Part shown: positions 1 to 23,994 of the stretch, piece after piece
How positions within the stretch are numbered: position 1 is the stretch's first letter
Layout: the number at the start of each line of letters is the position of its first letter
Assembly (NCBI GenBank): GCA_043228905.1
Contig: JBHGNT010000003.1
Span: forward strand, 5,270,001 to 5,334,000
DNA: 64,000 nucleotides
Direction: 5' to 3'
DNA from: Azolla caroliniana
Taxonomy: Eukaryota > Plantae > Polypodiophyta
Made by a program: the position numbers and the translations under genes
Notes under the pieces: generated by a model
What the model saw: the letters and a program-made list of their open reading frames with translations, nothing else
Told to the model about the DNA's origin: nothing
Database searches by the model: none

Positions 1-197
1 CCATTTGGCATACATGTTGTGCGCCACTTGGCGTACAAAGTGCATGCCATTTGGCGGTCATCTAATGTGTCTAGTGCTCTAGAGTTCTTGAATAATAATA
101 ATATGAAAATGTATTTATTAATGAAAATGAGTTGGTGTAATGATTGAAGTGTAAGACCATTGTTTGAAGGTCACAAGTTCAAACCTTGATATTCACA
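1..197. mobile_element. Probable end of an LTR (ends ...TTCACA) inserted in Copia A, with a degenerate tRNA-like A/B-box segment at its terminus
   Basis: Copia coding sequence resumes right after 197. TGGTGTAATGA (133-143) and AGGTCACAAGTTCAAACC (168-185) sit at nearly the same distance from the CA end as the tRNA-like segment in the chromovirus LTRs. Confidence 0.45.
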
Positions 198-2620
198 TTT
201 TGTGATTTCGATGTAACAATCAGAGCTAAGAAAGCCCTCATCTCTACAAATGAAAAGCTCCGCCGATCCATTCGTGAAAAGAACCCCGTAAGCCGATTCG
301 GCTACAACAATTATATGGCATACCATTACGCCTTTATGATGAACGTAGCAATAGTACGGGAGCCGGAAACCTTTTCCGAAGTCGCGAAGGACCCGTGATG
401 GATCGAAGCAATGAACGAGGAGATGTGTGCATTACGCAAGAACGAGACATGGGATCTCGTTCCCCCCTCACCGTACAAGAAGGCAATCGGTTGCAGATGG
501 ATCTACAAGGTGAAGTATAACGCCGATGGCTCCGTAAACTGCTACAAAGCTCGACTTGTAGTGAAAGGATACGCTCAGATGCATGACGTCGACTATGAAG
601 AGACCTTTGCCCCGGTGGCAAAGATGACGACGGTGCGGACCGTGATCGCACTTGCCATAGCAAAAGGGTGGCACCTCCACCAAATGGACTTCAAGAACAC
701 CCTTCTCCAAGGCGAATTAGAAGAGGAGGTTTTACATGATACAACCACCCGGCTTCAACTCGAGCACCCATCCGAAAGCTGTATGCCGACTCAAGAAACC
801 ACTCTATAGCCTCAAACAAGCACTGCGTGCTTGGCATTCGAAGATAACGCAATATCTTCATCAAATCGGCTTCCATATGTCAAAATCAGACAACTCCCTC
901 TACATATGAAGCTATTCCGCAAGTCCGATCGTCATCATCTTATATGTGGATGACCTAGTCATTGGAGTTGAGCATCTCGTCGAAATCAATAAGGTCAAAT
1001 CCCTCGTTTCCGACAAGTTCAAGATGACGGACATGAAGGAGCTCCACTACTTCCTTGGCATCGACGTAATTCGGACTTTGGATGGAATCATGATCTCTCA
1101 ATGTCACTACATCCTCTACTTGTTATACAAGTTCAGAATGGCTGACTGCAAATCAACGGCAACCCCGCTCGATCGCAATCTCAAACTAGATGCGAAATCC
1201 GACACCAAAGCGTGTGAGCCGACTCAGTATTGGCAACTCATCTAGCTCACGATCACACAATCCGATCTCAGTTATCCGGTTGGTCTCCTTAGCCAATTCA
1301 TGCAAACACCGCGTGATACTCACTTGGATTGCGCTAAGCGAGTTCTACGATACGTGAGCGGCACAATGGTTTGGGGCATCCTCTACAAGACCGCGATGCC
1401 AATACGACTCAAGGGGTACATAGACGCCGATTAGGCCGGCTACAAAGCCGATAGAAGATCAACCTCTGGATTTGTTTTCTCCATTGGCAGCAAGCAATAT
1501 CCTAGAGCAACATAAAGTAACCAATCATCGCACTTTCGAGCACAGAGGCGGAATACAGAGACGCGGTAGTGGTTGCATGTGAGGCCGTATGGCTCAAAAG
1601 GATACTCAAGGATCTGGGCGTACCCATCAAGGATCCGACTTCCCTTTACTTTGACAACATGAGTAGTATCTATTTGGCTCGGAACCCGGTGTTCCACGCA
1701 CAGACAAAGCACATCGAAGTACACTATCACTTCATTCGAGAGCGCGTTCTAGCTGGCGATGTCAACCTACAACACATTAGCACCAATCTTCAAATGACCG
1801 ACATCGTCACTAAAGCCTTAGGAGGCGACAAGCTATGGCAATTCATGACCGATCTCAGATTGACGATCCCTAACCTGCCAAGCTTGAGGGGGAGTACTGA
1901 AGACGCTACGCAATAACGCGCAAGCCAAAGCACAGACTTCAAAACTACGAACAACGCAAGCTGGAGCACAGATTTCGCAACTCTGCATAAATGCGAGTCG
2001 ACGCGGACTCCAGAACGCGAGTCGAAGCAGATTTCGGATACCATCTGAAACCGAACTGACTTGAGCTTGAGAGGACGTGTTGAGAATCTAGCTCAACTTG
2101 GTCTAGTGTGTGAAGTCACCTTGAGAGTGAATAGACACTCCAACAGTCAAGAGTCACCATTATGTCACCACTTTGTATTCTAGCATTTAGTATGGGTCAT
2201 AGAATCATAACTTATGAGCTTTCACATTCCCCATGCTCCATGAGTCTTGTAGTTAATCAAGAGATAAAGCACCCTCCTCCCACCTTGTATAGGTAACATT
2301 GAAGGGCATCGCCTTAGATATAGGTAGCTTCTTACATTAAGTTAGGCCGCAAGGCATTTTAAGTAGGCTCATCTTCTTTTACTTGATCGGAGGAAGACTC
2401 CCCGATGTGTGTATAAGTCTCCTTGTAGACTCTCTATGTAATAATCCTTCCTAACTAATGGGAAAGTAGCTTCATTTTGGGGAAAAAAAAAGCACCCTCC
2501 TCCCACCTTGTATAATGTTGAGTCTTTCTCCTTTGTTAATATACTTTACCTTGCGTAATCTTTGTGTCTTACTCCTTGTCTCTCTCACTCTCACTCTCAC
2601 TCTCTCTGATACACACACAC
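198..2620 (+). mobile_element. Degenerate Ty1/Copia element A: RT and RNase H remnants, PPT, truncated 3' LTR (starts 2078)
   Basis: ORF fragments WDLVPP..KAIGCRWIYKVKYNADGS..YKARLV, YVDD, EAVWLKRIL..NPVFHAQTKHIEVHYHF with stops and frameshifts. TGTTGAGAATCTAGCTCAAC at 2078 matches the LTR at 24166. Confidence 0.9.
2292..2488 (+). mobile_element. 197-bp A-tailed retroposed insert (5'-truncated LINE or SINE-like) inside the LTR of Copia A
   Basis: Flanked by a 26-bp direct repeat AAAGCACCCTCCTCCCACCTTGTATA (2266-2291 and 2489-2514) and ends in an A-tract. The homologous LTR near 24406 has a single copy of that site. Confidence 0.7.
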
Positions 2621-5496
2621 AGTTGAAAATAGTGAGACTAAAGTATGTCGATGGGGAGAGCATTGTAGAGCAGATCAGTACCTTCATGGGATTGGTGAAT
2701 CAGTTAGCATTAGCGAAGTTCCCATTAGATGATGCTATGCAAGCCGCACTATTACTGTGTACTCTACCGGATAGTTGGAAAAAATTAATAGTGACACTCA
2801 ACACTTACTGTAAAGAAAACAACCTATCTTTACAGGTACTAAAAACAAGTATCTTAAATGAAGAGACAAGAAGAAAGGATAAAAGTGCCTTGTCTCAATC
2901 GGAAGTTAACGTGACCCAAGAACATAGTAGAGGAAGAAGAGAACACAGAAGTCAAGAAGATTGAGATAGGTTTTATGCAAGGTCAAAATCTAGAGGTAGA
3001 CCTACATGCTTCTATTGTGGGAAACCTGGTCACTTCCAAAAGAATTGTCGACACCTTAGAAATGACAAAGGCATGGCTGATGAGGTCTAACCCAGAAAAA
3101 GTTTTGAAGATAAAAACACCTCAGCCATTGCAACTAGTGAAGAAGAGATGTTATTTATCTATGAACAAGGTAGCGTGAACCTTGCAAATGTTGAGTGCTC
3201 ATGGGTAGTGGATTATGGTGCTTCATTCCACTTAATTCCCAAAAGAGAATGTTTCTCATCTTACATAGTCGTTGACTATGGCTACGTAAGGATGAGAAAT
3301 GACAGTGAATGCAAGATTGTGGGCATAGGAACTGTGTGTTTGGTAACAACTACTGGCTGTAGGTTAACGTTGAGGGATGTACGCCATGTTCCAGATGTCA
3401 GATTGAATTTGATATCGGCTGGAAGGCTAGATGACGAAGGCTACAGTGGTGGCTTTCGAAATGGTACATGGAAGGGAACTTGATTGTGGCTCGAGCTCAA
3501 AAACAAAACACACTGTAAAGGGAGCTTGAGTTCTGTAAAAGGAGCTTGATTGCGGCTTGAGCTAAAAAACAGAACACATTGTATGTAATGCATGCCAAAT
3601 TGTGCCGAGATGAAGCCAATGTAGTGGGTGACTTAGATGGTGAGTTGTGGCATAAAAGGCTCGGGCACATGAGCGAAAGGGGAATGCATATCCTTGCTGA
3701 AAAGGATTTTCTACCAGAGGTGAAAGGAATACACCTTGAAAAATGTGTGGACTACTTGGCTGGAAAGCAAAATAGAACAACCCTTCACTCCAGATCTCCG
3801 ATGAGAAGAAAGCATGCCTTAGAACTGGTTCACTCAGATGTGTGTTATGTGGATGCCCCATCACACCGCGGTCGACAATACTTTGTCACATTTATTGATG
3901 ACTTCAAAAGAAAGGTGTGGGCTTATGTGTTGGTGTCTAAAGACCAAGTGTTGTTGTTCTTTAAAGAGTTTCACGCAAGGGTAGAAAGGGAACCTGGACA
4001 GCAGTTGAAGGCTGTCCGGACAAATAATGGCGGTGAGTATAGAGGCCAATTTGAGTCGTATTGCAAGACTCAAGGCATCAAACTTGACTATATGGTGCCG
4101 AAGACACTTGAGCTAAATGGTTTAGTAGAGAGAATGAACCGGACTATAATGGAAAGAGTAAGAAGCATATTGGCGCAGGCAAAACTGTCAAAGTCGTATT
4201 GGGCTGAGGCAATGTTGACGACGGTTTATCTCATAAACAGGTCTCCATTAGTGTCCCTGAAGGGGAATGTACCATAGAGGGTGTGGACAGGAAGAAATGT
4301 GTCTTATCATCTCTTAAAGGTGTTTGGATGCTTGGCCTATGTACTTGTTGCTAAGGATCAGAGGGCAAAGTTGGACAACAAGTACAAACCTTGTATATTC
4401 TTGGGATACTCAGAAGACGATTCGGGTATAGGATGTGGGATCTCCTTGATAAGAAGGTGATAAGAAGTCATGATGTTATATTCATGGAAGATAAGACAAT
4501 CGAAGGCTGGAAACTACAGAGACCAGAGTCATTTTCCCAATCGACTATTGTTATGGAGTCGATACTAGTCGATCTCACTCCCACACAACTAGTCAACAGA
4601 CAACAACCAGATGATGAAGCCGAACCTGAGTTGGCCGACACTCAATAGCAAATTGATGCACATGAATCTGCCTCGAAAGATGAGTTGTTGGATGAAACTG
4701 AATTTGAGTCGGTCATTGAAGGAAGAAGATACCCACAAAGACAAAGGAAGGCCTCCTCTCGTTATCCAACCAGTCAATATATCCTCATGACTGATGAAGG
4801 GGAACCAAAATGCTATGAAGAGGCCATGACTGATGTACACAAGGATAAATGGTATAATGGCATGCAAGAGGAAATGGAGTCCTTGCATGAGAACCTCACC
4901 TATGAGCTAGTGGAGTTGCTTGATGGTAAGATGGCACTTAGAAACAAATGGGTCTACAAATTAAAGACTGGGGAAGACGGAAGTACACCCAGGTATAAGG
5001 CCCGCATTGTCGTGAAGGGTTTCCAACAAAAAAAAGGTGTTGATTTTGATGAGATTTTTGCTCCAGTTGTTAAGATGACCTCTATCTGGACTATTTTGAG
5101 TATGGTTGTGAGTATGAATTTGGAAATTGAACAGTTGGATGTTGAAACATCCTTCGTGCACGGTGAGTTGGAAGAGGAAATCTATATGCAACAACGGGAG
5201 GGCTTTGAGGTAAAAGGAAAAGAGAACCTCATATGTAGGTTGAGAAAAAGGTTGTATGGGCTAAAGCAAGCCCCACGACAATGGTATAAGAAATTTGAGT
5301 CCTTCATGTTGGAACATGGATTCCACAAAACACAAGCTGATCATTGTATATTTGTGAAAAGGTATGATGAAGGTGACTTTCTTATTCTTTTGTTGTATGT
5401 AGATGATATGTTGGTTGTTGGACAAGATTTTAAAAAGATTGCAAGCTTGAAGAAAGCTTTGAGCAAATCTTTTGCCATAAAAGAGTTAGGACCCGC
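2620..5496 (+). mobile_element. Degenerate Ty1/Copia element B (Tnt1/Tork-like): gag, protease, integrase, RT; truncated at both ends
   Basis: LLCTLPDSW gag, WVVDYGASFH protease, LWHKRLGHMSE..LELVHSDVC integrase, RYKARIVVKG..LLLYVDDML RT. Short tandem duplication near 3472-3583. Confidence 0.9.
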
Positions 5497-5515
5497 AAAC
5501 CCTAAACCCTAAACC
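5497..5515 (-). repeat. Interstitial plant telomeric repeat (TTTAGGG)x2.7 at the breakpoint of Copia B
   Basis: AAACCCTAAACCCTAAACC directly follows the truncated RT codons ...GGACCCGC. Confidence 0.75.
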
Positions 5516-5533
5516 ATGACTCTCCCCCTTCGC

Positions 5534-5609
5534 TCATTGTATATTTGTGAAAAGGTATGATGAAGGTGACTTTCTTATTCTTTTGTTGTATGTAGATGAT
5601 ATGTTGGTT
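5534..5609 (+). repeat. Exact 76-bp duplicate of Copia B RT segment 5341-5416
   Basis: TCATTGTATATTTGTGAAAAGG...GATATGTTGGTT occurs twice. Confidence 0.9.
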
Positions 5610-6348
5610 TGTTATGTAGATAGTCCCTCCTTTTCGGGGGAGTCAGCCGAAAAGTTGACTCGAGAGTTGGCTGGCCGAAATTGGTTGGGAAGCCGACTTC
5701 GAAATCGGTTGAGAAGCCGAAACGTGTCGGTTGGCCGAAATCGGTCGAAAACCGAAATGGTATTTCGGTCGAATGGGAGTCGGCCTAATAGAACTTCGAA
5801 CAAACATATACATATATATATGTATTAGAGATGAACTAGTATATATAGTAAGAGTAAAACTAGCTACGCTTGTATGTGGGATAACTCACTGCGAGTAAAA
5901 ACAGTGAGAAAAAGCGCGAAGGTATACTTAAGTGAAAAGGCGAGTGCGTGAGTTATATAAGAATATATATTGCAAGAGAAGAGTGAGCTATCATAGTAGT
6001 GGTTGTGAGAGTGACATAACTTGAAAGCTGAGTGTGAGAGGAAGAACGAACAGTGCAACAGAAAGGAAGAGTGACAAAAACAGAGAAGTTTTGGAAGCTT
6101 CAAAAGGGATAGATACCTACGAGTTACGGTTTGGTGCACTCGGCTGAAATTGTGGTTTCAGAGTACACTCAGACCAGATCAAGTTCTATCATTTAGTGAT
6201 GGTATTTTGTCTTACTTCATACTGGAAATTTCTGTTCCGTGTTTTTTCCCTGAAATTAGGGTTTTTCACATAAATCATGTGCTACTCGTTCTATTTCTGT
6301 GTGTCTCTAAGTTTATTTGTAAGTTTTTTCTAAGTGAAATCATTTCAT
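5610..6348 (+). mobile_element. LTR (about 740 bp, TG start, 3' end lost or fused to the ROCO pseudogene)
   Basis: Starts TGTTATGTAG inside the duplicated RT piece. GCCGA-rich U3, TATATAA, AG-rich R and telo-box/T-rich U5. No matching TSD. Confidence 0.6.
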
Positions 6349-8512
6349 AATGGACCCTGACATTGAGGTGCAGCTGTGGAGGAACCGGTGCACTTTCATG
6401 TTGGGATCAGATTTGAAGTGAGTGCCCGCAACATCCATGTCATTGTTCATCTGTGGGGATCCATCTACAGGCAAAACATGACACAATCTTAAATATTGAA
6501 AACCTCACAAGCTAGATTGATGAGGATAAACACTAACACTTTCAATTCATTTGTTTTGGCGCAGGAAAGACTACCCTTGTATCTACCATGCGCTCCACGT
6601 ATGGGCACAAGAGAGATAGGCTGAGAGCCCTATTTACCGAAGGGCGTATACAAGGAATCGAGGTCCAAGCCATCAAAAGAGAGGGAATCTGAGTGTCTAT
6701 GTGGGACATGGCAGGCCAATCAAAGTTTCATGCATTCCATGATTGTATGTTCCCCGACATAGGCACAAGCTCTTATCAGATTCCATCCATGCTCATGTTG
6801 GTCTAGAGTCCGATGGAGAGTGAAAGTAGCGATAGAGGAGCAAGGAAAATAGACGTGGACTTCGAAGCAAGCTTCAGGTACTGGCTCAAGTTCCTCACCT
6901 CCAAAAGTCACTTGAGCAGACGAAATGGAGCTTGTCTCAAGCTCTCTCTCACCTTCCATTGATTCACTTTGATCAGATTTTAAAGGGGTTATTGACATTG
7001 TCGACCCTCCATTTGATGTGGATTCAAGAAACAAGGATTCTGTAAAAGTTGTAGCAAAATGAATCTTCTCCATTGCCAAAGAGTTGGTTCAAGGTATTGG
7101 CCGTGTGCCCACACCTGCACACACAAGGAAGCGAACATCTCCCCTATTCAATATTTGTGGTTTTCTAAGTGCACAAAATCAAACTATGTGATAGATGTGT
7201 TGGTTCGAGCTCAAAATAATACTCAAGAAAACACTCTAAGTACCTTAGTTTTTGTGCAAAAGCGTATCGTCAATACCTTAATTACAATATGTGCACAACC
7301 TATAGGTGTCCAAGGTGTTAATTTGATCCAGAGTGTAATCCGGCCCGATTAGTTACGTTCTCCATGAAGGACGTTAGATACAGAAGATCAATGCATGGAA
7401 ATAACTTATTTGAAGGAACAACTATTAAACAAACTTGAGCAAGGCGAGCATGAATTTTTTGATTGAAAACTGACCAGGCATATGCATGTTTCTCTCACAA
7501 GTGCTTTAATTGAGCTCTTAAGCTCAGAGTTTTATGGGGAGGTCCTCAATTCATGCAAACAACGGTTTGAGGTGGAGTTAGGGGATGCATTGTTGGAGAA
7601 TGATGAATTCAATTTATCTAGGCAATATCAAAGTCGTGAAAATGTTATTACAACTAGTCTTGAAAATGATTTGATACAAGGTCAAACATCTAAACACACA
7701 GTGAAAGAACAATCTAGTAAGTTTATGGTAAGGCCAAATTTAAATTTACATCGTAAGGTGGATGCCCCTCTTGAAGAGGTCCTAAAGCTATAACATAAGG
7801 TGTATCAAATGACCAAGAAGCTAAGGGAAGTACATAAAGAACTTCAATATATGAGGAAAGATGTTATGAGTAAGGTTGAGAAATCTATAGGCAAGCTATT
7901 GATGATGGCTCTAGAGAATGAGACAAAGAAACAACTCCCACACACTGCTTTCCTTACAACTAAATCTCACAACTCAAAGATGGGAAAACTTTTGAGATGG
8001 GTGGCTCAACTTTTGGGAGAGGAGTTTGTGAGAATCCAATTGTATCGTGAGGATAAAAATTTGCCACACCTGGTGGAGAACCAACCTGGTATCACCCTCA
8101 CCTCTTTGTTTGTGTCTCATTCATAGACTCTAAATAAAGCTCTTCCATATATCAATTGTTTCTTTCGTGTTTGGACTATAGCTACTAGACTTGGTATTTC
8201 CTCTATGGCTCCCCTTGCAACCTCTTTGAATCCTCATTGGACACATCACCTCAAACTAGCAAAACAATACCCTATAATACAATGTACTTCGAAATCCAAA
8301 AAATATATATAATTTAAGTATCCTAGAGTGTGCATCCAAAGAGTTGCAAAAGTGCTTGGCATTTATATTGGTGGGGAGGGTTGACAGACCAAAACACAGC
8401 TGCGAAGTTCTATCTTATGCGTACAATATGTTATGTAATTGACGGGAGTACTCAAATTGCATGGTTATGGAAGACACATTGTGAGGGAAAAACTCCCTTT
8501 CAGCTAGGCTAA
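6349..8512 (+). pseudogene. TORNADO1-like Roc-COR pseudogene (5' LRR part lost, COR N-half deleted), with GC-AG intron 6471-6564
   Basis: Translates to MDPDIEVQLWRN..FICGDPST(G)/KTTLVSTM..WDMAGQ..CMFPD..KSNYVIDVLVRA..KQLPHTAFLTT..RIQLYRED..QIAWLWKTH. Collinear with the intact gene but with many stops and frameshifts. Confidence 0.9.
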
Positions 8513-8679
8513 ATTATATCTTGCTATGTGGGTTTGAATAGATAACATTTTCTGCGACTACCAAAATTTATTGTAAACTAATATATATTCCTTATCTCAA
8601 ACCTAGATGGACTTTTGAACTTAACAAACAATAGCTCCATTTTATAACAGATATTATCAAGCTATATTGCACAGTTCAT

Positions 8680-10460
8680 ATTTCTTTCTTTCGATCAAAG
8701 TTCAATAGCCTTTGACTTAAGCATAATCTTCCTCTCCTCACGTGAATAATTATCTTCATACGAAATTAATTAATTCCAGAATATAATTTAATCAATCTTG
8801 TTTTCCAGCTAAATGTTATACAAAACCACACAAATGAGCAAAGCATGATTCAATCAGTTAGGGATGAACAAGAAGGCCCACAAAACGTTGGATCAGCTAC
8901 GTTATGAACCATTCAAAACTATTTTATCACTGAATGTACCTCGAGGTAGCTTAAAGAGTTCTGTGATTAAAAATTCAAATGTTCGGATATTTTCAATTAG
9001 TTAGCTTTTCTCGTTGAATTGAAGGTAATATTTCTAGTTAGATAGAGAAGCAATAGACAATTTGCTAGTATAAATTCTATATCAAATCATGCTTAACGAT
9101 AATTTAAAGAATTTCATGCTTGATTGTCAAATAAAATATAATATTAGGGCAGCAAACAAACATAGGTCGAGATTGAAAATATGAGATTTGTATATCATTG
9201 TTTGTTTAATCAACACCTTTGTTTCTAGTGTTTCTAGAATACAGACATGGGTCAAGAGTATAGAAGCAATTAGAGAAGAAGCCAAAGTCCTTACTAATAT
9301 CTCATTACTCCTATCTTGTAGCCCTCTTTGATCATCTCCCCAATCCCATATACATTCAGAGAAGCATCTTATCCGAGTCCTGTGCTGCAAAGGCAAGATA
9401 AAATATGGAATAAGTTAATGACAAGACATTCCGTTACAAGTAAAAGTTGCAGATCGATTGAAGATTCCCAAACTGAAACAATCCCTTTATAAGCTAGAAA
9501 GTACTTTTTCTGAATATCATTAAAAAAACTGCATACAGGCTTCCTGTGCTGGCTAAATCACCATACAATGCAATCAGGAAACTAGAAATGTTATGTTGAG
9601 TATCTTATGAGGGAAATTTATAAAGTCAACTTCACTATGTGAAGTGCATGCATTTTCATATAGTAGAGCCTGATTGCCATGTTTTCCAAGTTAGCCAGCT
9701 ATTGTAAGAGAGTTTTTTCACATAGCCTAGATCAGCTTACAGTCAAGTGCAGGTGATTTCTCTAATTTGAAAAGTTGAACCTTTGTATGTATTTGTTAGA
9801 AAAATCAAAAAGCATAAAATGAAATTCACAATCAAGAAGGATACAATGAAATCCACAATTAAAGAGAGCTCATATTAAAACAATCAAGTTGTCATGTATA
9901 TGTGTATACATCTTTTCCAATAAACTTGAGAGAGTGAATTTAATTTTTGCTGGATAAGCCATTGATACTCTAATCACGTAAAGCATTTCTTTTTGTTCTT
10001 CTGTCGGTTCTATTTTCGAAAGGTTTTCTAATTATTTTTTCTTTTACAGGCAGTTACTAATCCGACCCAAATTTCTTCTCCTTCTTTGTTCTACACCTTC
10101 CAATTGCATGTGCATCAATCACTAGAACTAACGAAATGCACAAACATATACAAAGAAGAGTTTAAAGAATCCTTATTTTTAGGAAAGAAACTTGCCTACA
10201 GAAGGTGTATTTTGGTTCCTTTCTGAGAGGGAGATTGCAAAGACCTCAGCATCGGCAGCCATTCCACACCTGATTCGTCGCCTTACACTCAAAATCCTGT
10301 GTTTTTCCTGCTACACCAAATGCTCAAGACGCCTAAAACACAATAACGCAAAAGGTAGTTGAGAGAGAAAGAGAAGAATATAATAAAAATATGTCCCCTT
10401 CAACAAGGGTATGACAGGAAAGATTAAGAAGACAAGATCCTACTTTTATCAAAATGAACG
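8680..10460 (-). pseudogene. Possible decayed multi-exon gene or spliced ncRNA of unknown identity
   Basis: Series of short higher-GC blocks bounded on the minus strand by YAG acceptors and GTAAG/GTATG/GCAAG donors (e.g. about 10196-10278, 10036-10121, 9740-9782, 9536-9581). One block gives a protein-like peptide DASLNVYGIGEMIKEGYKIG. No long ORF. Confidence 0.3.
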
Positions 10461-10473
10461 GAAGAAGAAGAAG

Positions 10474-10705
10474 GTTTTTCTTCCTCCGCCACCATTCTCC
10501 CAACTTTTCAAGCCGATCTCTACAATCTGATACATAGCTAGCTCATTTACTGAAGGAACTCTGCGTGTGGATGGATGCAGAGACTGCAGATTTCTCTTCC
10601 TCTTTCTCCGCCACCATTGTTCCAGCTTTTCAAGCCGAGCTGACCAATCTTATACATAGCTCATTTACTGAAGTGTCTCTATATGTGGATGGATGCAGAG
10701 ATTCT
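10474..10705. repeat. Diverged tandem duplication, about 115-125 bp x2
   Basis: CTCCGCCACCATT..CTTTTCAAGCCGA..ATACATAGCT..CATTTACTGAAG..GTGGATGGATGCAGAGA is present twice. Confidence 0.85.
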
Positions 10706-11285: not shown

Positions 11286-11845
11286 TTAGCCTAGTGGAAA
11301 GGGCCTTTGTCCTTTGTAGTGTGTCTTGCATAACCATGCAACTTGAGTACTCCAGCGAGCTCCATAACAGATTCATACGAAACTTCTCAGCAATGTTTTG
11401 ATGTGTCAAACCTCCCTTTTCCATCAATATCAATGCCAACCACTTTTGCCACTCTTTGGAAGCAAACTATAGAGTGCTTAGAAATATATCTTTTGTTTTA
11501 TTTAAAAATACTCTGTATCATAGGCTACTGTTTAGCCAGTTTGAGGTGGGTTGTCCAATCAGATATCAAACAGCTTGCAAAAGGGAGCCATAGAGGAAAT
11601 ACCAAGTTTAGCAGCTATGGTCAAAACACAAAAGAAACAAACCATTGATATATGGAAGAAGTCTGTGTAGATACTCTGAATGAGTCTATCAGATCGGCTT
11701 TCCACGGGGTGTTGCACTTTTTTATCCTCACAATATAATTGGATTCTCAAAAACTCCTCCCCCAAAAGTCGAGCCACCCATCTCAAAAGTTTTTGAACTG
11801 TCCAATTGCAAGATTTCGTAAGTTCCTCGACCTTAGATTGTGATC
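11286..11845 (-). pseudogene. Out-of-frame C-terminal remnant of a second tandem TORNADO1-like copy (now the 3' UTR of the fused gene)
   Basis: KLLRWVARLLGEEFLRIQLYCEDKKVQHPVE...STQVAWLCKTHYKGQRPFPLG* (TAA at 11288-11286). Closely matches 7985-8512 in inverted orientation. Confidence 0.85.
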
Positions 11846-14800
11846 TGATACCAACATCATATTTTGCTGGTTCCTCCACAGTTGGGCCTCGATGGCAGGG
11901 TTCTTCATAGAAAAGAGGGCTTTAATTTCAAAGAAAGGAAGGACGGAACGAGAAAGTGCATCCACCACCGCAGCAGTTGCAGATTGGCTTAATTCCTTGT
12001 CTTTAATGAAGCCTAATTGAAGACTGTATAGTTGAGGAGGCGAGGAAGGGGCGCTGCCAGCTGTTCCCGCCCTCTTCTTTGGCGGTGCTAGGTAATCCAT
12101 GAAATCCATTAGCTGCTCCTCTTCCATATATTTGCTGTCTAGAGAGAGCTCTTTGAGGTTGGGCCAGTGCCGCAGGAAACCAGTGCTCTTTCTCCAGTTC
12201 ATGCGTTTCGAATATATATGCAGTCTCTGGAGGGAGGCTGCGAGGGGCGAATGCGAGGAATGAAGGTTCGCCAATTTCACCACAAACTCTGCGGATACTC
12301 TCACACCCTCAAGGTGGAGGGATGTGAGGGACGTGAAGTCGCCTAACAGCTCCACGCACTCATCGCTAATCTTCATATCCTGAAGGGAAAGATGTTTGAG
12401 GCGTTTGTTTTTCTTGAGGGCACTCAGAAGACAATGACTACCCCTGAATTCTCGAGCCTGAATGACGAGGCTGCTGGGTGCCGCATCACGATCTGCAGCA
12501 AGAGAGAGCGCCTCCACCCAAGCTCTCTCCTCCTCTGCAGTTAGATCCAGGAGGAGATGGAGAGCTCCGCCTGTGAGATTGGCAGTAGCCATGAGGATGG
12601 CCATCCGTTGTTCGGTAGTGTCGGCATCTCTGAAATTGAACATCATGTCTGTGTTCCCCCAGTCCCAAACTGGATGATTTGGTTGCGGATCCTCGAGGCT
12701 ATTTATCGGTCGTCTCGGTCGTCGTTGTTCTGCAAAATTCCGTCTCATGATTCCCCTGTTCATTACATATGACCAATATGCTATTCCATGGTTTTGCAGC
12801 TTCTTCTTAGCGATGAGGAACAGGTTCTTAACATTAATTAGTTGAGGGAGTTGCTGCCCCAGCTCATGATGATCGCTAATACCCTTCAAAGTAATCGACA
12901 ATTTCTCCAAACTATCAAGAGCTGCTCTGGATTTCTCGCACGCCTCTGTAATTTCAAAGGAATTCCACATCATTTTCGTGAGGCGGTGAGGGGGTTGAAG
13001 TTTCTGGTGAAACATTTGAAAATTAGAAAGTTGGAATTGCAGGGATGCAGCCTCCACATCCCTCCTAAATTGCATTTCATGGTGTGCCTTGCATAACCAT
13101 GCAACTTGAGAACTCCCGCCGATTTTATCATCATAAATTGCATGCCTGAGACAGAACTTCTCAGCTATGTTTCCGACTGTGACACCTCCATTTTCCACCA
13201 ATACTGATGCCAACCACTTTTGCCATTCATTGAAAGACTCTATCATGCTTGGACATTCGGGAGAGATTGTTGATGAGGTAGTTATATCCTTTATTGATTC
13301 AACAATGCTCGATAGCAGAGGATACTGTTTCGCCAGTTGGCGGTGGCAAGTCCAATCAGTTTTGAAAAGGTTTGAAAGGGGATCAACAGAGTCAATTCCC
13401 ATTACAATGGCTACACTCAAAACATAAAAGAAACCATTAATATATGGAAGAGCTTTAGAGAGACACTCTGATTGAGACGTTGACCAGGAGGTGAGGATGA
13501 TGCCAGGTTGGTTTTGCACTGGGTGTGGCAGAATGTGATCCTCACAATACAATTGGATTCTCACCGATGTCACTCCTGAGAGTGAAGTCACCAGATTAGT
13601 TATTCCATTGTCACCATTGGTCGTAAGGATGGCGACACGAGGGAGTTGCTTCTCATTCTTATCCTCATTCCCCATAGGGAGCTTCAAGAGCGTACCTATA
13701 CATTTCTTAATCTTGGTCATCACATCCTTCCTCACATGTTGAAAGTTTTCATGTATTTCCCCTAGCTTCTCATTGATTTTGCTTAACCTCTTGTCTACCT
13801 CTAAGATCTCATTATTAGGAACATGTAAATTTGAGATGACCTTTCCCATATACTGGCTTGATTGTACCTCAATTGCTTCTTCTGATTCTAGCTTTACCAT
13901 GAACTTGCCGCATTTTACCTCAATTGCCTCTTCTAATATTTCACGCTCTTGCGCCAGGTTATTTTTTACGCTAGCGATGGTCAAATTTTGATGACTTTGG
14001 AGTTGCTCAAGTACATTGTCTTCATCATTCCTCAGCAATTCATCCCCAGATACTAGATCCAACCATGCTTTACATGAAATAAGAATTCCCCAATAATTCT
14101 CGAAACCAAGGAGATCAATTAAGTCATAAATTGTTTGAGGACAAGGCATATTCGTATTGCACTTCCAATCATAACATTGTGGCTCCCCTCGTTCAAGCTT
14201 TTCTCTTAGTTGTTCCTTCAAATAAGTTATTTTCATGCACTGATCTTCTCTGTCTTGTGCCCTTGATGGATCAACTAAGCATTCGGGTCGGATGACGCTC
14301 TCTATTATCTTCACCCCTTGGATGCCACTGGGTTGAGCTAGTATTGTAATCAAGCTGTCGATAATATGCCTCTCCACGTAAGCTAAGGTTCTCGGCATAT
14401 CTTCTACTTCAGTATTGTTTACAGCTCGAACCAACACATCGATGACATAGTTTGATTTTGCTTGGCACAACACCACAATGATCTCCTTGTTTGGAAACCG
14501 GATGGATATGGATTCCTTCCCAAGCATAATGTTAGCATTCGATTGGAATGCATTGTTAAATAAGACTTGAATCCTAGGAAAGATTCCTGGTGTAAGAAAA
14601 GTAAGGTCTTTCTTTTCGCACTCTAACCTTCGACCCCTATACACAAAAGAATCATTATCACCTAAGTTGCATGTTGGTGGCAATGAAGCCCATTGAAGCT
14701 GCTGTACACCCACATTTACCAATATTGCTGGGATAAAGATAAGATCTGCATTGCTTTCAGAGTCTCCATGGTCAATGGCAACTTTGCAACATAAATGCAT

Positions 14801-17267
14801 TTCTTCCATCAATTTTAGCACTAGTGATCCCTCTACTTTAAATCCAATAGTGGATTCCAAGTTCCCCTCTAGTAATTCTCTAGCTACACATCCATTGTTA
14901 AATACAACGGTATCTTCAGATGGTTCAGACTTTGTGATGCAAATGAGGGTGGCTATGATGTGATTATAGAACCAGTTGGGATCAAGAACAATGTGTTTGG
15001 TTTTGTTGGTGTATATGATGCTTCCCGACTCGCTCAAGGTTGAGGCAATCGTATTCAAATTGACTGTAGCATTGAGACTAGAATGTTTACCCATCTTACA
15101 AATTTCCGTAAACTTGTTCCATGGAATGATTCGCTCATTTGTGCTCTTCAAATGCTTGGACAATTGTTTGCTTACTTGTGTGCAGATGCTGTACACCTTA
15201 ACACCTCGGAGCATCTCTTTGGAAACTTTGAAGAAATGCTCGGCTACAGGTTTGACGGAGTCCTCCTGTCTCGCATCCACTTCGAAAGGAGGATCGACAA
15301 TGTCAATCGCCCATTTAAATTCTGATCGAAGTGAATTAATGCATGGTGAGAGGAAGCTTGAGACAGACACCATTTGATCTGCTCTTGTGAATACTACCAT
15401 CAGTTTAAGAGTAGTGTTAGATTGGGGCCTTTTGGAGGCAAGGAACCTGAGCCAGTATCTGAAGCTTGATTTGAAGTCCGCCATTGTTTTCATAGGTCCT
15501 CCATCACTATTAGTGCTCAGCACAGGACTCCAAACAAAAACCCACAGAGATGGCATGTCGGGGAACATACAATCCTGGAAGGCAAGGAATTGTTGTTGGG
15601 CTGGTATGTCCCACAGGGAGAGCATAATTCCCTCTCTTTCGATGGCTCTGACTGCAATTCTCTGTATGGGGTCATCCTGGGTACCTGGGCGGACTGTAAT
15701 GTCTCTCAGCTTATTTCTCATTGATGGAATGCAGGGTGGATGGGTGGTGCGGACTTTTATTGCTCGAGCTCGTGTGGGGAAAGATGATATTCTGCGCTTA
15801 CGACGTCTGCGAAACGGCATGCGATCATAGATGGAAAGCATAGTGGACACAAGGGTAGTCTTTCCTGCAGCAAAGAGATTATGCAAAATACAAGCGTTAG
15901 GGTTTGCCTTCTGAGATCAAATCAAGTTGTCTGATGTAAATATTTTAGAGACGGCGTTTGCCTGAAAATGGATCTCCACAGATGACCAATGGCATGGAAA
16001 TGCAAGGCCCTAGCTCCCAACCTGATCTCAGCATGCGACTGTGCTGGTTCCTCCATAGCTGGGCCTGGATGGCGGGATTCATCTTTGGATGCTGAAAGAA
16101 AGGAAGGCCGGATCGATCAAGAGCATCCACCACCGCAGCAACAGCAGATTGGCTTAATTCCGCTGATGCGTAACCTAAATGAGGACTATCTACTGCGTTA
16201 CGCTGCATATCAAGGCTGTATAACTGACGAGGTGATGTCTGGTCTTCCATGAACGTTGGTGGTAGGTGCTCCATGAAATTGATTAGCTCCTCCTCTCTCA
16301 TATCTCTAGTATAAGTGCCTAGAGAGAGCTCTTCGAGCATCGGCCAGTTGTGCAGGAAACCAATGCTTCTTCCCCAGTCAATGGATATAGAATCTATGTG
16401 CAGTCTCTTGACAGAGGATGTGAGGGATAAGTGTGCGGCACGAAGCTCCGCCAATTCTGCCACAAATTTTCCGGAGGCGTCTATACCTTCAAGGTGGAGA
16501 CTAGTGAGGGAGCTAAAGTCACGTAACACCTCTATACACTGATCGTTAATCCTCATCCACTGCAGCGAAAGATGCTCGAGGCCATTGAACTTCTTCAGAG
16601 CAGTAAGGACCTCATAAATGTCGAAATCACACTTGGAGATAAGCAAGCTCCTTGGCGTCGCATTACACTCTGCGGCCAGAGAGAGAGCATCCAGCCAAGC
16701 CGACTGTTCTTCTGGGGTGAGAACCTTGAGATGCAGGAGATGAACTGCTCCACCTCTAAAATGGGCGGCATACTTGAGGTAGGTCATGCTTTGCTCCAGA
16801 GTAGTGTCGCCCCTTAAATTGACCATGATGTCGTTGCTCCCCCAAGCTCGTTCTCTTCTGACGGTAGCATCACCATATGACTGATACGTTGTTGCTTGGA
16901 TTTCCTGCATAAAGATGAGGAAGAGATTCTTATCAGTGGGGTCATTCATCAGATGAGAGCGCTGATGATGATCACCTCTTGGGTTCAAAGCATTAAGAGC
17001 GTTTCTGGATTGCTCACACGCCACTTGGGTTTCATGGGAATCCCACCTCACGTTGATGAGGCGGTGAGGTTGTCGAAGACTCTGGTTATGAAGGAGGGAT
17101 GCAGCCTCCTCATCCGTATCATCCGTCCTACGGATGTGGAAGAGGTTCTTGAAACTGTCAAGAACTGTAGCCTTCAAATGGTGATACGGTTGAAGATTCT
17201 GACGTCGTCGTTGTTGTTGTTGTTGATGATGATGATGATGCCGGGAAGATGAAGCCTCTGCAGCCAT
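11783..17267 (-). CDS. TORNADO1-like ROCO protein, about 1795 aa, join(17267..15962,15864..11783): His/Gln leader, LRR-like module 1, Roc GTPase, COR, TRN1-type C-terminal domain, fused LRR-like module 2
   Basis: Splicing joins the 440-aa and 1367-aa ORFs in frame (5388 nt) and rebuilds the P-loop GDPFSGKTT. Also LSLWD, VVFTRAD, COR IVLDPNWF, TRN1-family C-terminus RIQLYCED..PHPV..IAEKFCL..VAWLCKAH, and RNI-like repeats LEHLSLQ/LTSLHLE/VKRLHID/LEELSLG. Confidence 0.88.
15865..15961 (-). other. 97-nt phase-1 GC-AG intron within the P-loop glycine codon
   Basis: TTTTCAG/GCAAAC...CCCTAAC (branch point)...TTTGCTGCAG/GAAAGACT. Same position and GC donor in the paralog (CAG/GCAAAA 6471 ... CACTAAC ... 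GCGCAG 6564). Confidence 0.85.
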
Positions 17268-19197
17268 GATAAATATATGTATGAACCAAGTGACCTGATT
17301 GTTTGGTTTGGTCTGATTAGATTTCCGCTTTCAACTTTCCTTTTTCTATTATCTCTAGTTCTATGACAGTTGAAATTTTGAATAGTGGTATGTAGGATTG
17401 ACGTACGTACATACGTACATCCATCCATACATATAATTCATACAATACATACATATATACATAAAATCCATACCATACATACAAACATGGTGCGACTTGG
17501 TTGTCGTGGGTTTGGTGGACCATCCGCTACAAGTAATAATGGTGACTTTTAAATTGCAGGCGAGGATATTCTCGATCAAGTAGGGCATCAACAAGATGAT
17601 GTGGTGGGGATGGTTTCTACGTCCACACCAAATTTATTAATTATGGGCGTATTGTTGCATGTTTCTGTTCAAATAGTGGAGTAGATCTTGAGAATGACTA
17701 GCACAGGAATTGAAAACAGACAATGCTAATAGTCCAAGTCTAATTAACTTCTCAAGTGTATCTTATTATTGGTAAAGAGAAATTTGACATTGGGTGACTT
17801 GCCACAATGGCAACGTGTAGTACAAATAAAGAGAGATCACGATGGTAAGGAATGTATAAAGAAGAGATCGGAAGAAACTTGTATAATTACATATTTTGAG
17901 ATAGCCAATATATGTGAGATTAACTGTCTCCTGAGTGAGAGTATTGGGGAGCTTCTGTTCCATGTTGTGGCCAGAAATGCTCTACAAGTGTATTGAATCA
18001 CATAAATTTGCACAATAGGAAATGCTGAAGACATCATCAATATGGGAGCTAAGGTTGACTACTCTACCTTGCATTTAACTACTCTGAAGGGGACATTGTT
18101 GTAGTGCAATGGCTTGTCAGCAAGCATCCTCCATCTCGAACTGCACAGGAAACTATATCCCAATGAAGACAAACAACAAACAACAAATTCAATTTACATT
18201 CCCATTTCTGGTGGCTTTAGCATCTTGTTCTTTTGGCACATTGAAATTCTACACATAGCATTAATTCAAATGTTTGGGGGCATTTATTCGTCTTTTCAAG
18301 TGAAATGCCGTGTTTCCTTTTCCTTCCATTAATTTTTGATTGGCCTCTATAGAAATTTGGAAAAGATTTTGGCACGCTCATGGACCAATTATTGAAACAA
18401 TTGTACATATTATTTGTCGAGGATAGAAATGTAAATAGGAAATGGGCTTGTTTGACATCTATAAAAGTAAGCCTAATTTAACATGGATAGTTGGCGAAGA
18501 ATACTTGAAAGCTTGGATCCATATAATAGACAATTTACGTACAATTCACCACTAATGGAATAGTGTCATTTTCAAAAGTGTATATTTAGCTTGTTTAAGT
18601 TTAGCTAATGTTACTTTGAGCGAAAGATCAAAAGTTGAGACGGGAGAGATTAGTGTACTCCATGAGAGATATATTATAAGTTGATGGTCACAATCCTCAC
18701 TAAGATGATTTGTGATTAAGCTACATATACAAAACACATGGCATAGTAAAAAGTTGATGCTGATTGAGCACATGCTCTCTCCTTTGCCTTCTCTTTTTTT
18801 TGGCCATCCAATTGATTATTATTTTATTTGGTCAGTAGCATGTTTGATGAATGGGAATTAAAACTATATTCGAATGAAGACAAACGACAAACAAAATTCA
18901 ATATGAATGACACAAGCAATGCAAACTTTAGTTGATTCGTTTTTATTTTCCCATTTTTTGTTGCTTTAGTCTCTTGTTCTTTTGTCGCATTGAAGATTTA
19001 CTAGTGGCAGTGAACGATGATAAAAGGTAGACAATAACATGGAGCTAAACAATTGAATAAGGCTAGGTAGGATTGACACATACATACATCCAGACATACA
19101 TCATAAATGGTATATATAAATGGAGGTATGGGCAAAATTCAACTGAATCTGTGAGTGCGTCTTCTTCTTTCTGAGTTACTACGGACAACGACAAAGA
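17268..19197. promoter_or_regulatory. Divergent (head-to-head) intergenic/promoter region with internal duplications
   Basis: 1930 bp between two divergent ATGs. TATATATAAA near 19111. Motif GTAGGATTGAC..CATAC(A/G)TACATCCA at 17392 and 19067. Block 18162-18250 repeated at 18873-19000. One W-box TTGACT at 18055. Confidence 0.55.
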
Positions 19198-21102
19198 ATG
19201 TCGATAGACAACATTGCAAGAGACTTGCGGATGTATGCAGAGGAAGGTTGTGGCCAAGAGCTTCTGAATCTCATTGGGGAACTATCTGACTCCACGTTCG
19301 ACACCGTGATCACTAAGTTTGATGACAGCAGCGGAGAGCTTCCTCTCCATGTGGCTGTGAGGAAGGGCCATGGACTGGGTGTATTGGGTCAAATCTGCAC
19401 AAAAAGAAATGGGGAGGACCTCATCCATGTGAGAACTGAGGGGGGCTACTCTCCCTTGCATTTAGCTGCTCGCTATGGGAACATTGAAGCAGTGGAGTTG
19501 CTTGTCAGCAAGCATCCTGCTGCTGCTGATTGCAACCTCCCCGATGAGGTGAGCTACAACAGACCCTTGCACCTTGCTGTTCTTCATGGGCACAAAGAGG
19601 TCGCCGCCCGACTCGTCGAAGCGGGAGCCACGCTCACCCTCCAAAATGGTAAGAACATGGTTCCTCTAGGGTTTTGTGAAGATCCAGAGATGTTCCGGGC
19701 CCTTTTCTCGCGCATCGACGATAGAAGAATCGAGAAGGAGATGAAGTATTACAGGGAAAAGTTGTACCCCTGCAAAACCATTCTGCATTATGCCGCTCTT
19801 CATTGCACAGATGAAGCTTTGATCGAAAACCTTTACTTAGCTGCAGCTGGTATTCGGCCAAAACATCTACAAGGTCATCCATCAAGTAAGGAAGTGTTAG
19901 AGCATGTTGATGAAGAAGGGAACCCATTCTTGCACAAGGCCGGAAAGCATATGTTGAAGGTGATCTTCAAGGGGCTGATTAGGAAGGAGCGAGACTTCAC
20001 AAAGCTGTTGGTCATGAATTGTGGACTGTACGATGCTTTTATGGGCAACAGACAACTATATGATGAACTAGCGTCTGATGGGACGACTTCCCAATTCAGT
20101 TTGGAATCGATGCAAGGGGAGCTCCTGTTTAGGCTCAAGCAATGGAGACAGGATGTAGGCGACGAGGCAAAGCAAATCCTGAAGCAACCATGGACGAATT
20201 CTCTCCTTCCATATCTGGCACTTTACCTGGGTAAGCACGAGGTCTTGAACTTCATACTGGATTCAAGATTGGAGTTCACTTTGAATCAACCGGATGCAGT
20301 GGAGAAGAGGTCGTGCCTGCATTGGGCGGTGTTACACAATCGAGTGGACATTGTGGACAGGCTCTTTATCTGCTCCCTCAGCTGTTGCAAGGGCAAGAAG
20401 CGCAAGCAAGAGATGGTCGACTGTCGGATGAGGTTCAAGAAACCAAGCCCAAGTGTAGTGGACGGTGCAGGGATGACAGCATTCCATATTGCATTTAACC
20501 AGAAGAATGAGGTAATGATGCAGACCCTGAGGAGGCAGAAGGAATTCAATGAATACGAAGACAAATTGCTGAAGGACAGGGAAGTGTATGTGCAATCGGT
20601 GAATGCAATCCTGGTGGGTTCGGCATTGATAGCAAGTATCACATTCGCCGGCTGGTTGCAAGTGCCATCGCATGTGTTCGGCAGCAGGGCAATGATCACC
20701 TTCTGGATCACCAACAGCTTGTCATTCGTCTTCGCAGTTGCGGCCATGGGTTTAAGCATCGGGATCCTGCTACTCACGCCCACAAGCTACATCGGCCAAG
20801 TAGTGTTTGAGCTTCAAAGGGGTATCATGTACATTGCATTTCTCCTCATGTTCTCGTTGGCAGGAGCCACAGTAGCCTTTATAACAGCAGGTTTCGCTGC
20901 ATTTGGGAATCAAGCTCCCCAACCAGAGTACAACATAGCGATGGGAACCGCTACAGGTCTTGGCGGCTTTGTTTGTGTGCTCATTCTAACATATTACATG
21001 CGCCAAGTGAAACTTCACAGTTCCGCATATCGACAACAAAGGATCACTTCCCATAGCAATGAAGAGCATGAGCGTCCACGAGAAACAATAGACTTAGAGT
21101 AA
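19198..21102 (+). CDS. Ankyrin-repeat protein with C-terminal PGG-type 4-helix transmembrane domain (ACD6/ITN1-like ANK-TM), 634 aa, intronless
   Basis: About 8 ankyrin motifs (GELPLHVAVRKGH, GYSPLHLAARYGN, RPLHLAVLHGH, KTILHYAA, RSCLHWAVLHN, GMTAFHIA). TM domain NAILVGSALIASITFAGWLQVP..FWITNSLSFVFAVAA..AFITAGFA..GLGGFVCVLIL. Confidence 0.92.
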   Translation: MSIDNIARDLRMYAEEGCGQELLNLIGELSDSTFDTVITKFDDSSGELPLHVAVRKGHGLGVLGQICTKRNGEDLIHVRTEGGYSPLHLAARYGNIEAVELLVSKHPAAADCNLPDEVSYNRPLHLAVLHGHKEVAARLVEAGATLTLQNGKNMVPLGFCEDPEMFRALFSRIDDRRIEKEMKYYREKLYPCKTILHYAALHCTDEALIENLYLAAAGIRPKHLQGHPSSKEVLEHVDEEGNPFLHKAGKHMLKVIFKGLIRKERDFTKLLVMNCGLYDAFMGNRQLYDELASDGTTSQFSLESMQGELLFRLKQWRQDVGDEAKQILKQPWTNSLLPYLALYLGKHEVLNFILDSRLEFTLNQPDAVEKRSCLHWAVLHNRVDIVDRLFICSLSCCKGKKRKQEMVDCRMRFKKPSPSVVDGAGMTAFHIAFNQKNEVMMQTLRRQKEFNEYEDKLLKDREVYVQSVNAILVGSALIASITFAGWLQVPSHVFGSRAMITFWITNSLSFVFAVAAMGLSIGILLLTPTSYIGQVVFELQRGIMYIAFLLMFSLAGATVAFITAGFAAFGNQAPQPEYNIAMGTATGLGGFVCVLILTYYMRQVKLHSSAYRQQRITSHSNEEHERPRETIDLE

Positions 21103-22378: not shown

Positions 22379-22951
22379 ATGCCGGAGCCTAGCAGTGATG
22401 ACCATCATAATCATAATCATCACCATCATCGGTTTTGTCATCTGATGAACGGTGGCTAATGTTACGATCTTGTTCCTCATTGATAGGAATAATGAACATC
22501 ATGACAGAATAGGATATTCTTCATACTGTGATGGACACATTAGAGAAGAATGAGCTTGGGGGAGCAGAGACATCATCAATTTAGGAGGTACCACTTCAGA
22601 ACAACGAATGGCGTACCTTAGGGATTCTGCCAATTTCAGCAGGGGAGTAGTCCATCTCCTATTTAAACAAAATTCCATCACCCAAGAGGAGGAGAAGGCA
22701 TGGCGGGAGGCTCTCTCTATGGTTGCAGATTATGATGTGGCCCCCAGGAGCCTGCTCATCCATGGAGCAATGACAGGAATGTCCCCTTCACTATACTTTC
22801 GTCGAATCCAAATGGAATCAACGTAAATAAACAATTGAATCAATGATTTAAATTCTATAACATCGGCAGATCCATATGGATGGACGAGGTATCTCCATCT
22901 CTTAATCATCATCAGAAGCTTCAGCCACCTCATCGCTTCATCCAAACGTAT
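22379..22951 (+). pseudogene. N-terminal relic of another TORNADO1-like paralog, cut by an LTR insertion
   Basis: DDHHNHNHHHHRFCHLMN..ILFLI..E*AWGSRDIINLGGTTSEQRMAYLRDSANFSRGVVHLL..EEEKAWREALSMVADYDVAPRSLLI aligns with modules 1 and 2. Followed by HQKLQPPHR, the module start motif. Confidence 0.85.
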
Positions 22952-23994
22952 TGTTGCCTAGTAAGGGTCAAGCTAGAGTAGTAAAGGGGCAAAAGGCTAA
23001 ATGAAGTATAGCCAAAGAGTATGTCGCCGGACAAGTGTGAAGCCAAACCAAAACATAGCCGAATAGCCAAGTAATATTAATAGCCGAAAATTACTATGTG
23101 CCGAAAAATATATATAGCCGAGTGTAAATATTAGGTAGTTATAACTCTTGTGCTAGTTGTAGAAACGACATTGTATTGTTGATGTAATCCTTCCATGCTT
23201 CCTATATTAAAGGGCATGAGCATTATACAAACTATCGGTCTATAAGTTGTTACTGATTTAGTAAAGAATTATGTTTGGAGACTATTGTGTTTATCGTTTT
23301 TTGAGTTTATAATTCTAAGTGTATTCTGCAGAGCCGATCAGTTAGATGATTCAGGCAATGTTTTATACAACTACCTTCATTAACTGATCCGACATAACTT
23401 GTGAACTTCCTTTCTAATAGTTTCTAATTGTTAAGTCCACACCTCCAACCACAACCTTTGGTAATGGATACATACTTAGGGATTGAGGATCCGATCCGTG
23501 TTTTTCTAGAGAATAGAACAACACAATTTCGCATGCCCGGTTCGATTTGTGTGAGACAGTGAACATTGGAGGATGGATGTTGTTCAATTGGAGTGACGAG
23601 AACACATCTGTGAGACATAGAGCATCACATACTCGGTCGAAGCACTGAAGAGTGGCACAAGGTAATTGGCCAGATCCAACATTTTGGGAAGCAATCCGAC
23701 AAGAGGTTGAAGAAGATTTTACAGTATTTCCTAGCTTAGAGACTTCCCTTGACAATAGTTCGGATTCTGAAATGTTCGACAATCAAGTAGCTACCACACA
23801 AACAAAGAGTCCCTAGTACCAAACAACCAATACAACGAGCCAATTAGATTTCAAGAAGACGACACAATTCCTTACCCTTACTTGAAGTATAGTGATGAGT
23901 TTGATGCCGATGCACATGTGCGTGATTTCCTTACCATATGGCAGGCAAACCATGTGTCACAAAAACTATCACAAGTTGATGTGGATGCTCAATC
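22952..23994 (+). mobile_element. Old Ty3/Gypsy element J: 5' LTR (about 22952-23565) and gag start
   Basis: TGTTG...GAACA boundaries, GCCGA-rich U3, TATA. Gag-like peptide PYLKYSDEFDADAHVRDFLTIWQANH near 23870-23960. Confidence 0.6.

Follow-up and report, generated by a model that had tools for sequence, protein, structure and literature searches.

A head-to-head ROCO/ANK-TM gene pair within an LRR-Roc-COR array of the fern Azolla caroliniana, a possible analog of paired immune receptors

Introduction

Paired immune receptors of the NLR family such as RRS1/RPS4, RGA5/RGA4 and Pik-1/Pik-2 are encoded head-to-head a few kb apart and combine an NTPase core with leucine-rich repeats (LRR) and an extra domain in one partner, the sensor, whose P-loop is dispensable in two model pairs (PMC9528088; this and all other papers are cited for those parts of their text that were available). 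Here we describe a locus of similar layout in a 64,000-nucleotide stretch of the genome of Azolla caroliniana (the window), where a ROCO gene, with LRRs, a Roc GTPase and a COR domain, lies head-to-head with a gene for a membrane protein with ankyrin repeats (ANK-TM). The extra domain of the ROCO protein is C-terminal, as it is in RRS1 and RGA5 (PMC9528088). Unlike the NLR pairs, the locus has NB-ARC in neither gene: it has a Roc-COR core, an LRR module taken from a paralogue and not a host-target decoy, an ANK-TM partner, and orphan copies of the two genes elsewhere.

In ACD6 and Lr14a, cytosolic ankyrin repeats precede a multi-pass membrane region of the PGG type, a layout that the fern ANK-TM protein resembles. 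Calcium influx is mediated by ACD6 and Lr14a alike, ACD6 being controlled via its ankyrin repeats. The known regulators of proteins of this type are small MHA1 peptides, together with genetic links to NLRs, and not ROCO proteins. LRRK1 and LRRK2 carry ankyrin repeats and LRR-Roc-COR in one chain. The predicted model of the fern ROCO shares their Roc-COR fold but the protein has no kinase or WD40, and the ankyrin repeats are on a separate membrane protein.

Plants have been credited with one or two ROCO genes, the function of which is poorly known (PMC11378527), and a 2014 review reported no ROCO in ferns (PMC4104024). The brown algae (Ectocarpus and others) have, like the fern, expanded LRR-ROCOs with variable LRRs, which have been proposed as immune receptors (PMC11378527; PMC3341825). 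Their LRRs are encoded one per exon and are shuffled or alternatively spliced, at least one species has most of its genes dispersed, and the accessible text of PMC11378527 makes no mention of an ANK-TM partner. In the fern, by contrast, the LRR lies in one exon, the genes stand in tandem clusters and whole modules are exchanged. The ROCO family, ANK-TM proteins and the brown-algal expansion are thus already known; the locus is no NLR pair, though by analogy it may work like one.

Results

A divergent gene pair in a fern

The window holds two intact genes that diverge, as the original prediction had claimed, from starts about 1.93 kb apart: the ROCO gene on the minus strand (1,795 aa) and the ANK-TM gene on the plus strand (634 aa), with 1,931 bp between the start codons (Table 1). 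The prediction was also right to see the pair as surrounded by dead paralogues and long terminal repeat (LTR) nests, since ROCO pieces lie on either side of it and 20 of the 26 other long open reading frames (ORFs) tested are parts of LTR retrotransposons, the other 6 giving no match. The best named relatives, from Adiantum, Ceratopteris and Lindsaea, place the plant among the ferns, in agreement with the early-diverging lineage that had been proposed, and a profile search found an NB-ARC match in neither protein, in keeping with a non-NLR locus. The pairing had been called undescribed; our literature search, with most subscription papers outside its reach, gave no ROCO/ANK-TM pair.

The N-terminal LRR module of the ROCO protein has about 9-10 beta-alpha repeats and models as a beta-alpha LRR solenoid (pLDDT, the predicted local distance difference test score, 82.7) with RI-like and F-box LRR matches. 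COR-A scores above the Pfam cut-off, and Roc is directly followed by COR. The top structure matches of the exon-2 model are LRRK1/LRRK2 and bacterial Roco (Foldseek E 3e-14), and comparison with Roco structures gave Z 19.9 and a root-mean-square deviation of 4.1 with 439 aligned; these fold searches were filled by Roc-COR matches and cover no C-terminal TORNADO1-type domain. The latter has the motifs LxCE..H and WxC..H, and gave no Pfam or Atlas match above 0.9. The description of the gene as TORNADO1-like therefore stands at the level of the family, with RI-like LRR, Roc, COR, a coiled region and a C-terminal domain with both motifs in common. It fails at the level of orthology: identity to Ipomoea TRN1 is 28-34%, and in place of a low copy number there are about 55-60 loci (a hand count) with fast birth and death, including a derived clade in which the switches are altered and a second LRR module is present. 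An Ipomoea TORNADO1 query gave 38 matches, all in the ROCO array (34 of 100 candidates scored).

The short intron that splits the ROCO P-loop is credible because the family shares its donor codon and one paralogue is found spliced. A donor occurs at the same codon in 35 of the 44 acceptors examined, 18 of them GC and 17 GT, and a contig end in run X1 (contigs, taken as RNA by guess, share 0.12) is the spliced form of a paralogue at this position (place 15868). Copies with GC and GT donors are intermixed in both clusters of the family, which implies repeated GT/GC switching. Contigs of run X1 match the pair at six places, four in the window ROCO and two in ANK, without a single difference. At 98% likeness it gives no cover at 5000-10705, 13242-15143 and 17680-18947, it also covers a dead relic at 22668-22814, and it contains no contig spanning the window ROCO intron or the junction to the C-terminal module; such contigs give neither expression levels nor co-expression. 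The ENA proteins P0124 and P0278-P0285, which start behind and end inside the P-loop intron, were rejected as transcripts, as were the ENA contigs of ANK, which carry promoter DNA.

In the ANK-TM protein, Ank families score above the Pfam cut-off and are followed by a C-terminal multi-pass region, with four hydropathy peaks at aa 463-598 and the predicted membrane helices encoded at about 20584-20991. Unlike ACD6 and Lr14a, it belongs to a fern subfamily and its match to the PGG domain (PF13962) falls below the Pfam cut-off (17.4 bits vs 24.1); farther homologues carry PGG, and channel activity is here predicted by analogy. Its identity to Adiantum proteins is 35%.

A ROCO array beside a single NB-ARC gene

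The ROCO array occupies two clusters on one chromosome, C3. Searching the genome for Roc-COR gave at least 83 matches (78 of 118 candidates scored) and searching for the LRR module gave 76, all of them on C3 at 3.6-6.1 and 22.2-24.1 Mb or on two small contigs. The 843 kb fetched around ROCO and ANK loci contain 36 exon-2 frames longer than 800 aa, and both exons are open in roughly 20-24 of the ROCO genes there. PF08477 matched 35 times, once in an array gene, the remainder being presumably small GTPases. No other host gene recurs upstream of typical ROCOs among 95 other ORFs, whose largest cluster (49) is retrotransposon-like. A land-plant ROCO expansion was absent from the literature searched, which extended neither to subscription papers nor to the supplements of genome papers and bioRxiv preprints, and PMC11218826 likewise gave nothing on the subject.

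By comparison, an NB-ARC search of the genome returned one gene, without an LRR match; this is a lower bound because family searches of the own genome miss divergent members, and the TORNADO1 count is to be read likewise. Searches of the genome with WH_DRP and RPW8 found nothing, and for Azolla filiculoides 3 rows are given among 3,775 NLRs (PMC12512272, Table S3). The single NB-ARC gene (C5:15,516,544-15,520,245; L111) has an N-terminal helical region, the NB-ARC and a long C-terminal region without LRR match, and by eye resembles the CC-NB-ARM class (class label from PMC12512272). Behind each TIR_2 exon of a small cluster at C12:0.56-0.63 Mb (L112-L114) lies a conserved exon (about 240-270 aa) that matches no family above the Pfam cut-off; these genes possibly form a TIR-X fusion family.

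Several features of the array stand on their own. A segment of ~33 kb with near-identical ROCOs is present twice at C3:3.86-3.93 Mb (L025, L026, L057, L058), as a very recent duplication or an assembly duplicate. At C3:22.19, 22.20 and 22.29 Mb (L055, L054, L049) LRR and Roc share one frame, the P-loop intron being lost or in-frame. At 24.06 Mb a broken typical ROCO lies head-to-head with a signal-peptide ORF and then a kinase ORF (L048, C3:24,065,787-24,068,650), by eye a receptor-like kinase.

A derived clade with altered switches and an exchanged LRR module

Of the 36 long exon-2 frames, 33 were placed in a tree together with four ENA proteins; in it the window gene, the genes at 5.53 and 5.60 Mb and P0124 form one clade (support 100/100, stem 0.39). 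All 30 typical frames keep the G2 motif RTxGI and the switch II motif WDMAG..F[HY]AFHD; both are altered in every clade member, whether intact (three) or broken (two), and in P0124. Before strand beta-2 the clade has IQRI, IPRI or LQRI where the family has RTxGI (PIQRI in the window copy). At 33 aa upstream, other clade members have a displaced copy that resembles RTRGIK, and the window ROCO reads RARAIK there. The DMAG of switch II becomes DIPA (window), DVPG, DIPG, EIPG or VIPG, and the final AFHD becomes AFQD in five of six clade sequences, while G1, G4 and G5 are as in typical paralogues (GDPFSGKT, FTRADQ, VDAR). By sequence the window ROCO has neither the G2 threonine nor the G3 DxxG of an active Roc GTPase. 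In Roco proteins, conservation is highest in switch II and the Roc-COR interface, through which the nucleotide state is relayed to the LRR (PMC6337361), so that altered or lost GTPase cycling in the clade is likely.

The original prediction overlooked a second LRR module at the C-terminus of the ROCO protein (aa 1371-1775). This module shares 43% identity with the N-terminal one of the same protein and gives one partner an extra integrated domain. The module is found in the three intact clade members and is absent from 33 of the 36 long exon-2 frames. All carriers have its junction in common. The modules themselves do not form one clade (approximately unbiased (AU) test, p 1.3e-4 against a single clade; 45 rows, quick tree, test group named before the tree), and six ENA proteins have modules that nest with the exon-1 sequences of the neighboring paralogues at 5.64-5.73 Mb. 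As judged from this tree, the C-terminal modules come from at least two donor lineages.

One origin for the head-to-head block

Within the array, ANK-TM genes lie at 5.254 (broken), 5.289, 5.408 and 5.609 Mb of C3. ROCO and ANK-TM are head-to-head at three loci, with both partners intact in two of them (the window and 5.60 Mb). The distance between start codons is 1.93 kb in the window, 1.71 kb at 5.61 Mb and about 2.6 kb at 5.41 Mb, so that genes of unrelated clades adjoin within a few kb. In the 843 kb fetched, ANK-TM matches adjoin only the derived ROCO clade and stand upstream of 3 of 33 located exon-1 starts. Four of the five clade loci have an ANK gene or an ANK-promoter relic upstream; the broken clade ROCO at 5.58 Mb has the relic only. 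The adjacency, and the genome-wide recurrence of pairs that the original prediction looked for, thus bear out in part: there are three copies, but they are not independent pairings. Divergence between the blocks is equal for ROCO and ANK (synonymous divergence, dS, about 0.15-0.25) and the flanks align, and therefore one event was copied by block duplication. From sequence, all paired copies descend from this one event.

Both genes are under purifying selection, with pairwise ratios of nonsynonymous to synonymous substitution (dN/dS, omega) of 0.19-0.57 for ANK and 0.32-0.45 for COR; selection on the genes was gauged from such pairwise values and not from per-site counts along a tree. In Adiantum and Ceratopteris, the closest named relatives of ANK-TM and of ROCO are found on separate chromosomes. 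A metagenome scan for linkage returned only contigs of 1.5-3 kb, shorter than the pair distance requires. A PGG search of the own genome gave 2 genes, and no ROCO was found near the PGG genes on C12 in the stretches fetched. ANK-TM and PGG-domain genes form separate tandem clusters without ROCO neighbors at C5:21.48-21.65 Mb and C12:3.34-3.39 Mb. Over aa 446-634, the broken ANK at C3:5,255,761-5,256,327 (L002) and the window ANK are 100% identical, which suggests recent gene conversion. An extra partial copy of the LRR module follows the stop codon of the 5.60-Mb paired ROCO (C3:5,599,947-5,600,360; L015 region, in L013).

Between the two genes of the window, the duplicated promoter motifs that they had been said to share turn out to be direct repeats of another kind: relics of an ANK 5' part and a ROCO-family upstream element that also precedes unpaired ROCOs (Table 1). 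On sequence comparison, the repeats record the landing of an ANK copy in a ROCO upstream region and no designed shared promoter. Outside the pair and its relics, at 23000-64000 and 1-6000, the window contains nested copia and chromovirus-type gypsy elements, with an open pol frame of 1,143 aa at 38296-41727.

Table 1. Features of the ROCO/ANK-TM locus and its surroundings (positions in the window)
Feature	Position	Strand	Remarks
Dead typical ROCO paralogue	6341..8485	+	stops, frameshifts, internal deletion
Broken relic of ROCO C-terminal domain	11307..11777	-	follows the stop codon; left over from a tandem copy
ROCO exon 2	11783..15864	-	Roc, COR, helical/coiled region, TORNADO1-type C-terminal domain, extra LRR module, stop
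C-terminal second LRR module	11846..13060	-	from paralogue exon 1; in-frame fusion where typical members stop
Altered switch II	15572..15613	-	WDIPAQQQFLAFQD vs WDMAG..F[HY]AFHD in 30/30 typical paralogues
Clade-specific basic insert in switch I (RRRRKRR...)	15722..15823	-	about 33 aa, predicted disordered
ROCO intron	15865..15961	-	97 nt, GC-AG, splits the P-loop GDPFSG|KTT
ROCO exon 1	15962..17267 (ATG 17267)	-	His/Gln-rich leader, RI-like LRR module of the N-terminus, P-loop as far as GDPFSG (its first half)
Degenerate 5' portion of an older ANK-TM copy (promoter repeat and ankyrin codons)	17390..18144	+	matches the C18 ANK gene
ROCO-family upstream element	18187..18494	.	about 20 unpaired ROCOs have it upstream too
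ROCO-family upstream element, second copy (partial)	18824..19000	.	repeat comparison
ANK-TM proximal promoter with ATAC microsatellite	19053..19197	+	sequence comparison
ANK-TM gene	19198..21102	+	one exon; ankyrin repeats, then four predicted membrane helices
Relic ROCO LRR module 3' of the ANK gene	22410..22953	+	in the duplicated block; also at C3:5.258 and 5.612 Mb

Discussion

The descriptive layer of this work, comprising the ROCO array, a head-to-head block of one origin and a derived ROCO clade, is secure. On it rests, by analogy with paired NLRs, the tenable though still tentative reading that the two genes form a coupled defence pair, in which ROCO would be the sensor and ANK-TM a calcium-permeable executor. 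In favor of this reading, the ANK neighbor, the altered switches and the additional LRR module all fall in one clade. An ANK-TM copy would have landed in the upstream region of a ROCO gene. On the same stem, this ROCO likely gave up normal GTPase cycling and gained its second LRR module. Refreshed from neighboring paralogues, this C-terminal module could provide a variable recognition surface, and the conserved N-terminal LRR or the basic Roc insert may hold ANK-TM inactive until a ligand binds ROCO, much as sensor NLRs restrain their helpers.

At +1 to +4 after nine LRR strands, sites that were picked after seeing the alignment, the ratio of nonsynonymous to synonymous change (pN/pS) is 1.8-2.0 in 13 typical N-terminal modules. 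At the same positions it is about 2.0-2.1 in the three C-terminal modules and 0.4-0.7 in the clade's three own N-terminal modules, values that rest on three sequences per clade module and are confounded by gene conversion. The textbook xxLxLxx positions give 1.10 (confidence interval 0.82-1.37), and measured against local pS the value for the typical set is about 1.2. Neither the 22-24 Mb cluster nor C359 entered the site tests, and one identical duplicate, the modules at 5.65/5.73 Mb and any module with <300 aa aligned were likewise set aside. Since the sites were chosen post hoc and the textbook and local values are lower, diversifying selection at exposed LRR loops is suggested, not proven.

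These lower values and the post hoc choice count against a coupled sensor and executor, as do a number of other observations. The three head-to-head copies amount to n=1, repeated independent pairing above chance was not found, and the intergenic motifs are duplication relics. Nor are the partners strictly retained together. Apart from the two intact pairs, the ROCO at 5.40 Mb is split by a transposon, frameshifted and bereft of its C-terminal module beside an intact ANK (omega 0.19); the intact clade ROCO at 5.53 Mb showed no ANK within some 34 kb upstream of it; a broken ROCO retains a promoter relic; and a broken ANK at 5.25 Mb stands alone, with no ROCO upstream. No ROCO was found near the ANK-TM genes on C5, C18, C1346 and at C3:12.7 Mb in the stretches fetched, and in the related contig L081 about 500 bp of unrelated DNA lie upstream of ANK. 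DxxG is kept in three of six clade sequences. Finally, the middle region of ANK varies fast (pairwise omega 1.05-1.61), and therefore ANK-TM may be its own sensor.

The chief alternative, somewhat doubtful if plausible, is that both genes, each likely a defence gene, work apart, an ANK-TM gene having fallen once into a ROCO cluster of fast turnover and been carried along by block duplication. The derived ROCO would then, with the same reserve, act alone or regulate typical ROCOs via COR dimerisation. The single origin of the block and the mosaic of relics between the genes are what such an accident would leave, an unrelated chalcone synthase gene has also come to lie in the cluster, and Lr14a gives resistance as a single cloned gene. 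The intact orphans, an ANK at 5.40 Mb and a ROCO at 5.53 Mb, fit separate functions too, although they are 120 kb apart and could pair in trans. Difficult to reconcile with genes working apart are the coincidence of switch changes, extra module and ANK neighbor in one clade and the ANK gene or relic upstream of most clade loci. The chalcone synthase exon itself (L013:1903-3060, C3:5,596,903-5,598,060) lies just 3' of the paired ROCO at 5.60 Mb.

That the array is a developmental or near-neutral expansion in a transposon-rich region, its derived clade decaying and its LRR variation due to relaxed constraint and gene conversion, we consider improbable: many ROCO copies are broken, whole-module dN/dS is 0.7-1.0, the only studied plant ROCO, TORNADO1, is developmental in the sources available, and the array may carry the TRN1 role, no close orthologue having been found elsewhere among the 34 of 100 candidates scored, but COR and the C-terminal domain are held at omega 0.3-0.5 in the clade, the variation falls on repeat-periodic exposed positions with buried leucines conserved, and the derived architecture is open in several related ENA sequences.

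If the coupled-pair reading is followed to its widest form, this fern lineage would have largely replaced NLRs by an array of LRR-Roc-COR receptors, one clade of which independently re-invented the paired-NLR design, with a pseudo-GTPase sensor that has an exchangeable C-terminal LRR cassette and controls an ANK-TM calcium channel encoded head-to-head with it. We think this rather unlikely as a whole; the array as an NLR substitute is nevertheless as interesting as the pair itself. With about 55-60 loci beside one NB-ARC gene, it offers a direct test of the idea, proposed for brown algae, that LRR-ROCOs are immune receptors, and it bears on the defence of NLR-poor plants. The natural variants of switch II are useful for the question of the Roco GTPase mechanism. 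Were the pair functional, it would name an upstream regulator for channels of the ACD6/Lr14a type and constitute a sensor/executor pairing without NB-ARC.

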